Below, piece by piece: positions 22,097-34,579 of a stretch of DNA of 64,000 bases (position 1 is the first letter of the stretch; each line of letters starts with the position of its first letter). Below the pieces are notes generated by a model. That model had not been told where the DNA came from. It ran no database searches and saw only the letters and a program-made list of their open reading frames with translations. Source of the stretch: an uncultured Chloroflexia bacterium (GTDB taxonomy: Bacteria; Chloroflexota; Anaerolineae; CG2-30-64-16); assembly GCA_963810095.1 (NCBI GenBank), contig CAWEMM010000012.1, forward strand, positions 672,001 through 736,000, read 5' to 3'. The position numbers and the translations under genes are program-made.

Positions 22097-23364
22097 CTAG
22101 CGTAACACCGGGATTGTGGCGTTGGCAAATGGCATGACGCCAATGCGCGCGCCGGATGGCAGGCGGGCCAGCGCCTCGTCCACGGCCTGCTGGAGCGAAG
22201 GGGCGGGGTTCAGCAGCAGGCGCTCGGCCAGGCTGCGGTCCATGTCTGACACGAACGTAAGGCGGACGCGGGCCGCGTCGCGTGCGATCTGCCACGCCTT
22301 GTGCGGGCCGATCCGGTAACCCTCCGCCGCATAGCGGTCGAGCACCTGCTCGTGCGTCGTGAAGCCGCCGTCGAGCATCCAGCGCTCGTAGGCTGCGCTG
22401 CCCGTGCCTTCCCCGCAGGCCGCGGCCAGGATCACTGCGCCGCTCAGAGCGGGAACCAGCCGGGTCACCAGGGTGGCGTGCGCGAGGGCCTTTTGCGCCT
22501 GGTACAGGTTGATGTCCTTCGGATGGCCGCCGGGCGACACGATGACCAGGTCGAACGGGCGGCTGACTTCCACCGCGTAGATGGCGCGCAGCAGGGGGAT
22601 GCCCGCCTGCATCACGTCGACCGGGCGCCCGGCCAGGACGTGCGCGATCTGCTTGTGGTCATTCAGGATCGCGTTGAGCGCGTAGTCCACCCCGATCAGC
22701 CGCCCGATCTCTTCGACATCCTGCCGGCAGGGGTTGTCCGCGTAGGAGTTGATCTCGGCGCCGGCCGCGGTCATCATGGCATGGTTCGTGTTGATGGTGG
22801 CCTTCGCCGTCAGGCCCACCGCCGCGCTCTTGACCCCGCCCGAGAAGCCCATGAACTGGTGCGGCTCGATGTTCCCCACGACCACCCGCAGGTCCGCCTC
22901 CCACCAGCGCCGGTTGACGCTGACGGGCGTGCCGCGGGCCGTCTCGCCGAGGTAGATCAGCTCGCCGTCCGCATTGCAGTCGTGGCTGTACACGGGGTAG
23001 CGGGCGAGGATCTCGGCCGGCAGGATGGCCGGGAATTCCTCGGGCGGCATGGGGGCGTGGGTGCCGGTCGCCACCAGCAGCGTGATGTTCTCGGGGAGGA
23101 ACCCGAGCCCTTCGAGCCGGGCGAGCAAGGGCGGCAGAAGGTAGCGGTGGGGGACGGGCCGGGTCTTGTCGTTAACCGCGACGACAGCCCTCCGCCCTCG
23201 GTTCGTGGGCAGGGGCGCGGCGTCCAGGGCCGCCTCGACTGCCGCCAACGGATCGGGCGAGGGCGCGGCCTCGCGGGGCGCGAGCAACTCCACCCGGCGT
23301 CCAGCGCGGCGGGCAGGTCGAACTCGACAAATCCTTTCCCGTAGGGAAGCTGGTAGCGGGTCAA
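22097..23364 (-). CDS. larA: LarA-family nickel-pincer 2-hydroxy-acid racemase (frameshift near 23295)
   Basis: LPYGKG, NDKTRPVP, ATGTH, HD, EPHQFMGFSGGVKS, GGHPKDINLYQAQKAL, GPHKA. Confidence 0.85.
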
Positions 23365-23371
23365 CGGCGCC

Positions 23372-24485
23372 TCATGCAAACAGCCGGATCAGCAGCAGGC
23401 TAAACAGCGCCAGGCAGCCGCCCACGGCAAAGCCGAGCGCGAGCGGCTTGAGCCCGGTGCGCCGGATGCTCGCGGCGTTGGTGCTCAGCCCGATGGCCGA
23501 GAGGGCGAGCAGGATGCAGAGCTTCGTCACCTCGTCCAGCAGCTTCAGCACGTTGGCGGCGGCTACCAGGCTGCCCGGGTCGTTCACGTTGACCGGTGTG
23601 AAGCCGAGCGCGTTGCCGAGCGACCGGACCAGGCTCATGCCGACGAAGCCGAGCACGAACCAAGGCACGATCTTGCCGATCGACAGCTTGACCGACGCAT
23701 CCCGCTTCTGCTGCGCCCGGGCGTACACCAGCCCGATGCCGAGGATCAGCGGGGCCATGAGCGTGTTGCGCACGAGCTTGACCACCGTCGCAACGTCGCG
23801 TGCCGCGTCGCTGAACGCCGCGCCCGCGGCCACCACCTGCGACGTGTCGAGGATCGCAGTGCCGGCCCACAGCCCGAAGATCCGGTCGCTCATGCCCACC
23901 AGGTAGCCGAACGTGGGGTAGAGCAGCACGGCCAGCGTGCCGAAGAAGGTGATGGTGGCGACCGCATAACTCACATCCTCGTCCTCGGCCTCGATGACCG
24001 GGGCCGTCGCAATGATGGCGGAGTTGCCGCAGATGGCGGTGCCGACGCCGATCAGCGCGGCCAAGCCGGGGGCGGATACGGAGGGCGCGCCCCAGCAGGT
24101 AGGCGAGCGACAGGGCAAAAGCCACGCACGCGAGCACCAGCAGCAGCGCAGACCCGCCGATGTTGATCACGTCCTGGAAGCTGAGCCGCACGCCCAGCAG
24201 GATAATGCCAAAGCGCAGGATGCGGGTCAGAGCGAACTTGATGCCCGGCTCGAAGCGGGCGGAAAACCCGATCGCGTTGCGGACGAAGAACCCGAGCAGC
24301 ACCGCGATGAAGACTTCGCTCACCGCCCGAGCGATCTCGGGCGAGGGGATCAGCCCGTGCAGGTAGCGCGCGATGAGCGCCACGGCCAGCACCAGGAACA
24401 GGCCCGGCAGGGCAGGGCGCAGCTCCGCGCCGATCTTGCGGAGCTCGGCAACAAGTGGATTGACGTGCGTTGTAGGGGCGATCAT
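23372..24485 (-). CDS. YeiH/UPF0324 putative sulfate/sulfite exporter (TauZ/SuyZ-like; frameshift near 24075)
   Basis: LRFGIILLG, GTAICGNSAI.A.AP, FGLWAGTAILDTSQVVAAG, VVKLVRN, VPWFVLGF. Confidence 0.85.
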
Positions 24486-24496
24486 GGCAGCTTCCC

Positions 24497-24561
24497 GACC
24501 TTCGGGGTTTCGACCGCGAGCAACCTGACCGGGTCAGGCGCTCGGTGAAACCCCGAAGGTC
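24497..24561. repeat. Long hairpin, GACCTTCGG...CCGAAGGTC family
   Basis: Imperfect palindrome related to 7206-7239. Confidence 0.55.
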
Positions 24562-31674: not shown

Positions 31675-31788
31675 GTGCCTTTCCCTCCCTGGGTGGTGTT
31701 GAGATCGCGTCGTGGGGCCCGTGCGCAGCACGCCGCCTCATGACAGGAGTTGACTTACGACAGGCGTTGACCTACGACAGCTGTTGAC

Positions 31789-33142
31789 TTACGACAGGCG
31801 CAGCACGGGCAGGTCGAGCAGCCGCGCCAGCGCCAGCAGGGCGTCCAGGTGGTCGCCGTAGGTCAGGGAGATGTGGTGGTCCAGCCCTTCGGTCATGATG
31901 GTGTCGAAGCACCTCTTGGGCCGGGCGGTCGAACCGGATGCACGCCGGACGTGCCCGTGTAGCTCATCGGCGCGTGCTGCATTTCGCCCGCCGCCACGAC
32001 CAGCCGGTACTCGCCCGTGGCCTGGCTCAGGCGGGCGAGGGTGACGCGGCCCGGCTTCAGCGGGAACTCCATCAGGAGCGGCTTCTTGCGGTTCGAGTGG
32101 ACCGTCGTGCGGGGCCGCAAGTCGGGATCGGCCATCGAGAGCGGCGCGAGCCCGCAGTGCCACAGCACCGCCTCGTCCCGCTCCAGGTCCCAGCCGACCA
32201 TGTCGGTCCCAAAGGCGGGCTCGCCGCTCAAACCCTGGAGAATCAGCCCCGTGACCGTGCCGTTCACGTCGGCCTCGCACGAGCACGGCGTCATCTCGTC
32301 GGTCAGCAGCGACATCGCGCCGCACGCGGCGCCGCCCAGCTCGGTGAAGAACTCGGGCCAGCAGCGCACCGCCAGGCCCCGAAAAGGCGTTTTCGTCGGC
32401 CAGCCGCCCCAGCGTGACGTACGCGCCGAGCGTGTTGCGCAGCGGCTCCTGCTCCAGCTCGTCCAGGCCGTCCACCCGCTCGCTGCAGGTTCGCCAGCAC
32501 CGGGTCTACCGCGCTGACCGCCGCGCTCCGGGCGCCGTCGAACACTTCGGCCAGCCCGCGCTGCACCACCTGCACGCCCAGCCGGGCCGCCAGCGCATCG
32601 CCGTCATACGTGCACGGCTCGAAGCCGTCCGGGTTGAGCCCGAACCGCCCGATCCGGGCGCTCTTGAGGCGTGCGCCGCACCCGGCCCGCTTGTGCCAGC
32701 GTGAGCAGCTTCTGCATCGCCTGCGCGGTCTTCCGGCTCGGCGTAGACGTACTCATAGCTGAACCCGGCCCGGCGCAGCGCGTGCGCCGCCAGGTTGATG
32801 CCGCAGAACGAGTTCAGCCGCAGCCGGCCCCCGGTGCGCTCTTCGGGCAGCGCCCACAGCAGCAGTGGCGCGCCGGGCACGGTGCGGGCCAGGTCGACGA
32901 CCATGGTGCTGTCGGCGAACGAGGCCTGGAACGCGAGCAGCAGGTCGACCGGCTCGGACAGCAGCTCGGCCGGCCGCCGCCCGCACGCCGTCCAGGTCCA
33001 TCACGAGGTCGGCCGGACCGTGCACCACGCAGCCGGCCTCGTCGAGCCGGGCGCGCATGCGGGCCATCATTTCGGCCGCCAGGGGGACGTCGAAGGTGGG
33101 ACGGGCAATCGGAATGAAGCCGATGTGCAGCGTTGGTTTCAC
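31789..33142 (-). CDS. L-fucose-isomerase-family protein, probable SQ isomerase (SqvD/SftI-like); frameshifted
   Basis: [51 protein letters not shown] overlaps the ROK stop. Confidence 0.78.
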
Positions 33143-34490
33143 GGTTGGGTTCCTTGTCGGTAGAAGAATGCGTCGAGGGCGAGCGCGGCCGCACCGATGA
33201 CGCCCACCTTGCGGCCAAACGCCGTGGTGGAGAGGGTCACCCGCTCGCCCAGGCCGGCGAACGAGCGCCGGCGCATGGTCTCTTCGATGCGGGGCAGCAT
33301 CAGGTCGGCCCCGGCGGCGAACAGGCCGCCCAGGATGATCATGTCGGGGTTCACCAGGTTGACGAGGTTCGCCAGCGTCGTGCCCAGGTGGAAGGCCCGC
33401 TCGTCGAGCAGGGCGAGCGCGTCGCGGTCGCCCGCCGCGCCGCATCGAACACCGCATCGATGGCGCCACCGGGGCTGAGTGCGGCGTCGGCGGCAGCGCC
33501 TGGGCCAGGATCGAGCCGGGCGAGCGGCGCTGCGAGCACGGTGGCCTGCCGCACGATCTCCCCTTCGGACACCAACGTTTCGAGGCAGCCGGTGTTACCG
33601 CAGCGGCACGGCGCCCCGCCGGCAGGGATGACGGTCGTGTGCCCGATTTCGCCCGCGCCGTACTGCGTTCCCCGGTAGAACTCGCCGCCGATGACGAAGC
33701 CCGCGCCCACGCCGACCCGGCTGTAGACGAACGCCAGCATGTTCACGTCGCGGCCCGCGCCGAACATGGACTCGGCCAGGGCCATCGCGCGCACGTTGTT
33801 GTCGACCATGACCGGGCGGCCGGTGATCTCGGTCAGGATGTCGCCGACCGGGCACGTTGCGCCAGCCGAGGCTCGGGCGCGAGCACGTTGACGCCGGTGT
33901 GCGGGTCGGTGAGGCCGGACGCACCGACGCCGATGCCGACCAGGCCGGTCGCGGCAGCCGCCCGACTCGTCGAGCGCGGCGTCGGCGATGTCTGCGGCCA
34001 TGCGCAGCAGTTGCTCGGGCGACGACGCGCCGTCCTCGGGCTGGTGCAGCGATGCGGTAGGCCTGCAGCTCGCCAAACAGGTCGGTCACGCCCACGTGGA
34101 CCGTGTCGACGCCGATGTGGATGCCCACGGCGCAGCGTGCGTCGGGGATCAGGCGGACCAGGGTGGGGGGCGGCCGGCGCCCTTGCGCTCGACGTTCGAG
34201 CGCTCGACGGCCGTGCCTTCGACGTTCGAGCGCTCGAAGGGGAGCGCTCGCCTTCAGCAGGCTCCTTGCCCGCTTCCTCGACGATGCCCTGTTCCAGCAG
34301 TTGCGTGACGAGGTTGGTGATGGTCGTGGACGACAAGGCCGGTGAGGCGGGCCATGTCGACCCGGGAGATGGGGCCGCAGCGCAGCAGCGTCGAAAGGAT
34401 CGCGTGCAGGTTATGTTCTTTGACGTCAGAAATCGACCGGCCCCGGGGGAGGACGGTGCTATTAAGGGCGAGGGGATGGTGGAGCTTCAT
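33139..34490 (-). CDS. ROK family transcriptional repressor (frameshifted)
   Basis: N-terminal HTH (GPISRVDMARLTGL), DNNVRAMALAE, GAGEIGH, CRCGNTGCLE. Confidence 0.88.
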
Positions 34491-34517
34491 TGGTCGCGCC
34501 TGATCACCCGGGAGGAA

Positions 34518-34579
34518 TTAATTAATCAAGAGTAGAAATAATATAACGTGAGTATAGGTCGTCGGCGGGCGTTTGTCAA
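34518..34579 (-). promoter_or_regulatory. Sigma70 promoter with AT-rich ROK-type operator
   Basis: TTGACA (34574-79)-17 bp-TATACT (34551-56) on minus strand; TTAATT-N12-AAATAA just downstream. Confidence 0.7.

Follow-up and report, generated by a model that had tools for sequence, protein, structure and literature searches.

Mineralisation of sulfoquinovose (SQ) usually needs two organisms, and the coupling of sugar cleavage to desulfonation within one cell is described as unusual (PMC13436972, PMC12421959). We analysed a 64,000-nt stretch of DNA (the window; the genome it belongs to is G000) containing a gene cluster, originally delimited at 22097..34579, that a first-pass annotation had read as a complete route from SQ to sulfite. 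The closest described systems are the "extended" sulfo-transaldolase (sulfo-TAL) clusters of Thermotogae and Chloroflexi, which contain the sulfolactate sulfo-lyase SuyAB and for which complete use of SQ carbon was suggested as a genomic prediction (PMC9594981, section 11). Sulfo-TAL in Chloroflexi is also noted in PMC7491151, PMC12890257 and PMC10599462. The window shares with the extended clusters the phylum and the presence of sulfo-TAL genes and SuyAB in one cluster, and because that 2022 review explicitly places SuyAB in Chloroflexi sulfo-TAL clusters, the claim that this combination was new to Chloroflexota fails. The locus differs in its fused SuyAB, in its GH188 glycosidase, and in a LarAH5-family protein and an aldehyde:ferredoxin oxidoreductase (AOR) that occupy gaps for which the section text of the review names no racemase and no sulfolactaldehyde (SLA)-oxidising enzyme.

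Four other systems frame the comparison. The sulfo-TAL (SFT) pathway of Bacillus megaterium DSM 1804 and B. aryabhattai SOS1 (SqvD/SftI, SqvA/SftT, SlaB/SftD) has the isomerase and the sulfofructose transaldolase in common with the locus, but uses a major facilitator superfamily (MFS) importer, a GH31 glycosidase and an NAD+-dependent SLA dehydrogenase, and excretes sulfolactate. The SlcC/ComC-SuyAB module of Chromohalobacter salexigens and of the tandem sulfofucose pathway of Paracoccus wurundjeri (PMC12421959) inverts (S)- to (R)-sulfolactate ahead of SuyAB and joins sugar cleavage to desulfonation in one cell, as proposed here; its inversion relies on two NAD(P) dehydrogenases, however, and its upper pathway is Entner-Doudoroff-like and acts on sulfofucose. 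The 2,3-dihydroxypropane-1-sulfonate (DHPS) pathway of Desulfovibrio sp. DF1 (PMC6278857) combines, like our locus, SuyAB in an anaerobe with an AOR, there induced and proposed as a second SLA oxidase, but DF1 has an SlaB, starts from a substrate other than SQ and uses sulfite as a respiratory electron acceptor, whereas no match to the sulfite reductase family PF01077 was found in G000 (88.5% complete). Finally, Mar1 (LarAH5) of Desulfitobacterium hafniense belongs to the same NCBIfam family as LarA of the window and carries the same H-Q-F and G-x-H-K signature, in a group-5 context made up mostly of COG2721 genes; it was assayed on malate, and the text of PMC7583248 that was searched contains no mention of sulfolactate. 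The window LarA and a close Mar1-like protein encoded at L207 share 38% identity.

We propose, with a probability of roughly 60%, that the window carries a ROK-repressed, Anaerolineae-class operon for one-cell desulfonation of SQ that includes an AOR and a LarAH5 step. More broadly, we lean towards viewing LarAH5 proteins encoded beside SuyAB or the phosphosulfolactate synthase ComA as nickel-pincer sulfolactate racemases, which would constitute a second feed of SuyAB besides SlcC/ComC; in Anaerolineae they would be joined with AOR and fused SuyAB, so that a single cell could mineralise SQ through a lower pathway free of NAD-dependent steps. Among the openly accessible papers listed by our searches, none links a LarA-type enzyme to sulfolactate racemisation, and the parts of PMC9826295 consulted do not either; the racemase assignment is thus the part absent from that literature, and we rank the recruitment of AOR and the fusion of SuyAB below it, as variants of lesser weight. 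Two stated open questions meet in this locus, namely the native substrate of Mar1/LarAH5 and the supply of (R)-sulfolactate to SuyAB in organisms devoid of SlcC/ComC. If the proposal is correct, the native substrate of Mar1 would be named, an organosulfonate would be added to the reactions of nickel-pincer enzymes, and the family would be re-annotated in several phyla. Dozens of Anaerolineae genomes contain the cluster, and these bacteria may therefore liberate sulfite from SQ without a partner organism.

A predicted operon for sulfoquinovose desulfonation

Open reading frame (ORF) translations, domain matches and tblastn with orthologs recovered all the genes named by the first-pass annotation; they share one orientation, on the minus strand, and follow the order claimed. 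Its motifs TTNPRH/VNPH/GWKE, EHRFPF..EKCCH and GGRLRLNS are likewise present in the window translations. The features are, in the direction of transcription:

34551..34579, minus strand: putative sigma-70-type promoter, TTGACA-17-TATACT (11/12 consensus positions)
33139..34490, minus strand: ROK-family repressor, frameshifted (PF00480; tblastn with the intact G001 ortholog)
31789..33142, minus strand: SqvD/SftI-like SQ isomerase, frameshifted (best family SftI NF048012)
30258..31674, minus strand: ATP-binding cassette (ABC) solute-binding protein with a twin-arginine (TAT) signal (PF01547, PF10518), ligand presumed
29206..30118, minus strand, end approximate: ABC permease 1 (PF00528; ortholog mapping)
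28249..29197, minus strand: ABC permease 2 (PF00528; ortholog mapping)
27447..28111, minus strand: predicted SqvA/SftT sulfofructose transaldolase, two frameshifts (best match BmSF-TAL 8bc2)
26215..27431, minus strand: predicted SqgA (GH188) NAD+-dependent sulfoquinovosidase (best PDB matches and active-site residues)
24577..26086, minus strand: predicted fused SuyA-SuyB (R)-sulfolactate sulfo-lyase, 502 aa, one assembly frameshift near 25810
23372..24485, minus strand: YeiH/PSE-family exporter (PF03601; TIGR00698 below cut-off), presumed to export sulfite
22097..23364, minus strand: LarAH5-family nickel-pincer racemase (NF052595, 469 bits, cut-off 462), proposed sulfolactate racemase
21175..22092, minus strand: acetamidase/formamidase-family gene (PF03069), probably a passenger
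20282..21080, minus strand: alpha/beta hydrolase (esterase; PF12146)
18337..20267, minus strand: AOR-family aldehyde:ferredoxin oxidoreductase, proposed SLA oxidase (ortholog match to 1aor; synteny)
16482..17963, minus strand: MFS transporter (PF07690), possibly part of the unit

The promoter lies 61 bp ahead of the ROK start. A scan of 16000-35200 returned two sites with at least 9/12 matches, against 1.5 +/- 1.2 in shuffled sequences, a count so near to expectation that the position of the promoter weighs more than the number of sites. At its other end the unit extends below 22097 to 18337, through the amidase, the esterase and the AOR gene, with gaps of 5, 95 and 15 bp. The route is not complete within 22097..34579, as the conversion of SLA to sulfolactate is not encoded there. 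ORFs, domain matches and ortholog mapping revealed no SLA dehydrogenase, ABC ATPase or mutarotase in the locus and neither SlaB nor YihU in 16482-34579, so that the locus departs from a canonical sulfo-TAL cluster.

In the pathway that we propose, the operon would be controlled by the ROK repressor, and SQ or SQ-glycerol would be imported by the ABC system, presumably energised by an ATPase encoded elsewhere. By homology to characterised enzymes, SqgA would free SQ, SqvD would convert it to sulfofructose, and SqvA would move C1-C3 to glyceraldehyde-3-phosphate, yielding fructose-6-phosphate and (S)-sulfolactaldehyde. The downstream AOR, with about even odds, would oxidise this aldehyde to (S)-sulfolactate with ferredoxin, and the LarAH5 enzyme would, rather more probably, convert the (S)- to the (R)-enantiomer. 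Fused SuyAB would then, judging from its homologs, cleave (R)-sulfolactate to pyruvate and sulfite, and YeiH may carry sulfite out of the cell. Both sequence and synteny lend good support to the earlier pathway reading, in which a single Chloroflexota cell imports SQ glycosides and, by way of SqgA, SqvD, SqvA and SuyAB, exports sulfite; LarA had been named in that reading and given no role.

The identity of the transaldolase is well supported by comparison with characterised enzymes, which predicts an SqvA/SftT-type sulfofructose transaldolase. The window fragment matches BmSF-TAL (8bc2) with an E value of 4e-34, against 3e-15 for the next match, and its intact G007 ortholog scores 272 bits on BmSF-TAL, against at most 170 bits on canonical TalC/FSA. 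For SqgA, the best PDB matches of the Gfo protein are 8zn9, 8qc2 and 8qc3 (E 1e-50, against 1e-15 for others); all eight ArSqgA active-site residues listed in PMC10755693 (K107, Y136, R166, L170, K172, E189, H193 and H321) are kept in the alignment of the G001 ortholog with 8qc3, and the motifs of that ortholog are also found in the window copy. A figure legend of the same paper depicts a Chloroflexi sqgA cluster. The lyase, also on well-supported grounds, is predicted to be SuyAB, apart from the UxaA/GarD enzymes. Its SuyB part is 66.8% identical to WP_011295855.1, from the hpsNO-suyAB cluster of Cupriavidus pinatubonensis, and among its best 120 matches the JGI names are all SuyB, and two NCBI names are UxaA or galactarate dehydratase. 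A SuyB 98% identical to the window copy carries the NCBI label Anaerolineae. SuyB of at least 83% identity occurs in 13/24 genomes of the same family (6/7 of the same genus) and in 0/16 from other families of the class.

The isomerase fits less neatly. The intact G001 ortholog has SftI NF048012 as its only NCBIfam match, at 278.8 bits, far below the cut-off of 700, which counts against the proposed pathway; 11 other isomerases from sulfo-TAL loci also fall below it, at 210-395 bits. We consider that it probably works like SqvD without being filed in the SftI equivalog, given its best family match and its linkage to SqvA. This shortfall, together with the membership of SuyAB in the UxaA/GarD family and the fact that the SqvA query finds a single transaldolase in the whole of G000, the one in the locus, could suggest that the locus serves another sulfosugar, or an ordinary sugar such as fucose or a uronate through canonical TalC, FucI and UxaA. 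We hold this to be very improbable: R30-H31, NPH and W138-K139 are shared by SqvA and BmSF-TAL at positions where canonical enzymes differ, the sulfonate-binding residues of SqgA are conserved, 13 plasmid matches share 57-67% identity with SuyB and the others listed at most 40%, and the NCBIfam search of the isomerase gave no FucI or AraA match.

A synteny survey places the predicted operon in a wider set. We fetched 80 transaldolase loci, most of them titled Anaerolineae or Chloroflexota, retained the 65 with an SqvA-like gene of at least 60% identity and dropped 15 more distant ones. Among these 65, many of which end at contig edges, SqvD is present in 48, SuyAB (at least 45%) in 32 and LarA in 25. 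When only the 30 Suy-like loci that show LarA or have at least 5.5 kb downstream are considered, 24 have LarA. A divergent UxaA-like gene, found in 6/65 loci (L047, L051, L053, L056, L064 and L093) and 36-37% identical to the Cupriavidus SuyB, replaces SuyAB there, mostly with LarA and a GH4 gene.

LarAH5 as a candidate sulfolactate racemase

Sulfoglycolysis produces (S)-sulfolactate, the substrate of SuyAB is the (R)-enantiomer, and the known inversion proceeds via SlcC and ComC (PMC11193023, PMC13436972). The locus has neither SlcC nor ComC; the G000 genes closest to the slcC and comC genes that adjoin SuyAB elsewhere lie outside it and share at most 37% identity with them. LarA, whose ORF is N-terminally clipped in the window, exceeds the LarAH5 cut-off and retains the catalytic His pair, the Arg/Lys/His residues that bind the nickel-pincer nucleotide and the group-5 signature, by comparison with rows of Dataset S2 of PMC7583248. 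G000 also has larE, larB and larC (larB recognised by eye). Three more LarA paralogs lie at G000:C12:27526, 85419 and 585070, one of them adjoining another AOR gene. A plasmid search with LarA returned no close relative.

Sulfolactate is malate with the second carboxylate replaced by a sulfonate, and COG2721 presumably covers both SuyA and SuyB. The KM of Mar1 for L-malate is 55 mM, and in the view of its authors malate is probably not the native substrate; Table S1 of the same paper gives 19 COG2721 genes around 15 group-5 genes (PMC7583248). The SuyB list of PMC6278857 includes several of the group-5 species, and the conserved Lys has been assigned to the second carboxylate of malate (PMC11770544).

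We scored 69 SuyAB loci, 20 of them chosen from genomes without LarAH5, for LarA-family and SlcC plus ComC genes within 6 kb, taking the Pfam families of SlcC and ComC from the supplement of PMC12421959. SlcC and ComC are present together in 0/40 loci with a LarA-family gene, against 8/29 without. In a phylum sample centred on G340 (Syntrophaceae title), LarAH5 is found in 7/201 genomes, four of the seven beside SuyB and five with SuyB in the genome, while SuyB is present in 10/201 overall. The sample centred on G341 (Clostridia title) has LarAH5 in 18/401 genomes, three beside SuyB and 8/18 with SuyB in the genome, SuyB being present in 21/401 overall; two of these LarAH5 genes, Desulfitobacterium-like by eye, sit between suyAB genes. 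LarA loci below the family cut-off, used as controls, have SuyAB in 0/23 and 0/15 cases. In the window's phylum, LarAH5 stands beside ComA in 7/9 genomes of one genus.

Several results weigh against LarAH5 as the inverting enzyme. Neither LarA nor SlcC/ComC is encoded within 6 kb in 18/69 SuyAB loci, three loci have a ComC-family gene in the vicinity of LarA and SuyAB, and six Suy-like sulfo-TAL loci with room downstream have no LarA. No sulfonate neighbour was seen for 11/18 LarAH5 loci of the G341-phylum sample and for 7/17 of the window's phylum, where SuyB occurs in 1/17 other LarAH5 genomes versus 15/300 overall (no enrichment, p 0.59); a uniform partnership of LarAH5 with SuyAB is hence rejected for that phylum. 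ComA also adjoins 2/23 of the sub-cut-off control LarA genes. All these co-occurrence counts include related genomes and therefore lack independence, and the sample was in part selected; one frameshifted sequence distorts the LarA tree, which we use only qualitatively.

LarA could thus be a passenger, a malate or general 2-hydroxyacid racemase in an otherwise correct SQ-to-sulfite pathway, with inversion left to unlinked SlcC/ComC-like dehydrogenases or unneeded if SuyAB takes the (S)-enantiomer. NF052595 indeed bears the name malate racemase, the GPHK motif is common to malate racemases, and G000 possesses two PF02615 genes and several D-hydroxyacid dehydrogenases; the SuyAB loci with neither system nearby point the same way. 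We judge this unlikely nonetheless, as LarA adjoins SuyAB across several gene orders in three phyla, SuyAB is found in 0/38 control loci taken together, and Mar1 is a poor malate enzyme. From family assignment and gene neighbourhood, LarA of this clade is probably an (S)/(R)-sulfolactate racemase.

Related arrangements were seen in other genomes. In the genus with ComA, the comA gene lies directly upstream of LarAH5 (e.g., L144:8066-10472) in genomes without a SuyB match, and the pairing possibly reflects sulfolactate synthesis with racemisation. Other LarA lineages occur in sulfo-TAL loci with SuyAB, namely a LarAH14-like protein, a 39% homolog and a 27% homolog (L019:6355-7818, L073 and L328). 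Two SuyAB loci with neither LarA nor SlcC/ComC carry a mandelate racemase/enolase-family gene near SuyAB (L321:8026-9147, L326:1949-3094), a possible third racemase. In the Acidimicrobiia-titled loci L044, L045, L050 and L052, an SlcC-family dehydrogenase is encoded upstream, in addition to SqvA and SqvD.

Oxidation of sulfolactaldehyde and fate of sulfite

The AOR gene downstream of LarA is the candidate for the missing oxidation. The best PDB match of its G012 ortholog is 1aor (E 3e-112 over 628 residues), and the window copy matches that ortholog at 67-73%. AOR (at least 55%) is present in 16/65 SqvA-like loci and an aldehyde dehydrogenase (ALDH) in 10/65. Among candidate genes for tungsten uptake, G000 has six PF12849 matches, each of which may encode TupA, ModA or PstS. 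The SuyAB-LarA-AOR block is kept where it is split from the transaldolase (G005, G006 and G021).

SLA might instead be oxidised by an unlinked NAD+-dependent ALDH, or leave the cell as DHPS after reduction, in which case the AOR would be a general aldehyde enzyme located downstream by chance. This explanation is a serious one, although we place it somewhat short of even odds. It draws on the generality of the AOR clade, in which SQ-linked members are scattered across the tree: only 3/35 AOR-selected metagenome loci with at least 3 kb upstream (of 80) have SQ genes, most members lie outside SQ loci, and a dedicated SQ-specific AOR clade is rejected. An amidase and an esterase separate AOR from LarA in this genus, and G000 has five ALDH genes, at most 34% identical to the SQ-linked ALDH of G008. 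The recombinant DF1 enzyme, produced in E. coli, was moreover inactive on all substrates (PMC6278857); because it was inactive on acetaldehyde as well, we consider that test uninformative. On the other side, AOR and the SQ-linked ALDH occur together in 0/65 loci, AOR is the immediate neighbour of LarA or SuyAB in G005, G006, G012, G014 and G021, and a G008 YihU-like reductase query found no match in G000. That AOR takes the place of SlaB as SLA oxidase in the operon is, to us, an evenly balanced proposition.

The lack of a PF01077 match in G000, at its level of completeness, fits sulfite export by YeiH and led us to reject sulfite respiration. G000 holds four PF00174 genes.

Assembly errors, neighbouring genes and related loci

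Most genes of the locus contain 1-5 frameshifts when intact orthologs from relatives are mapped by tblastn, mainly as single extra bases relative to G001. A decaying operon, with real frameshifts and a dead pathway, would leave most genes of the window broken in this way. The housekeeping genes of G000 are equally broken, however (the RpoC motif, for instance, lies in a 265-aa open frame), several of the indels are not present in short-read contigs of close relatives, and orthologs in the same genus are intact. The frameshifts are thus genome-wide assembly errors; true pseudogenes were ruled out on the same grounds, and decay of the operon is extremely improbable. The separate suyA and suyB genes of the first-pass annotation also stem from such an error, as they are split by one extra base near 25810-25813 that is missing from contigs of 3/4 public runs; the gene is intact and fused in the same-genus genomes G001, G004 and G007. 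A SuyA-SuyB fusion was found in 13/46 full-length copies examined, and the departure from two subunits is a variant rather than a loss.

Regarding the neighbouring genes, the acetamidase/formamidase gene was seen only in G001, G004, G007, G017 and L073 among the loci compared, and an MFS gene similar to that at 16482..17963 lies near AOR in 5/80 AOR loci. No RNA dataset matching the locus was found among the public datasets listed, in which DNA datasets match with small shares.

A GH4-family glycosidase (PF02056) is encoded near the transaldolase in 12/65 loci (e.g., L051:10687-12120), none of them with SqgA and eight with neither SqgA nor GH31. It is a candidate for a third sulfoquinovosidase family, or for a marker of a different sulfosugar; none of the papers listed by a literature search describes a GH4-family sulfoquinovosidase. 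Two plasmids carry clusters with SqvD-like isomerases. On a Ca. Chlorohelix plasmid (L307, NZ_CP128401.1 67404-86687), the isomerase is accompanied by a pyrophosphate-dependent phosphofructokinase, an ABC system, an aldehyde dehydrogenase, and sulfite reductase and siroheme genes, possibly for use of SQ as a sulfur source. The cluster of a Zymomonas plasmid (L308, NC_013785.1 1-10394), with a class II aldolase, a mutarotase, a Gfo protein, a TonB receptor and an aldehyde dehydrogenase, looks like a sulfo-EMP2-type system. Elsewhere in the window, an ORF at 39259-40623 resembles, by eye, a type I restriction-modification methyltransferase subunit.

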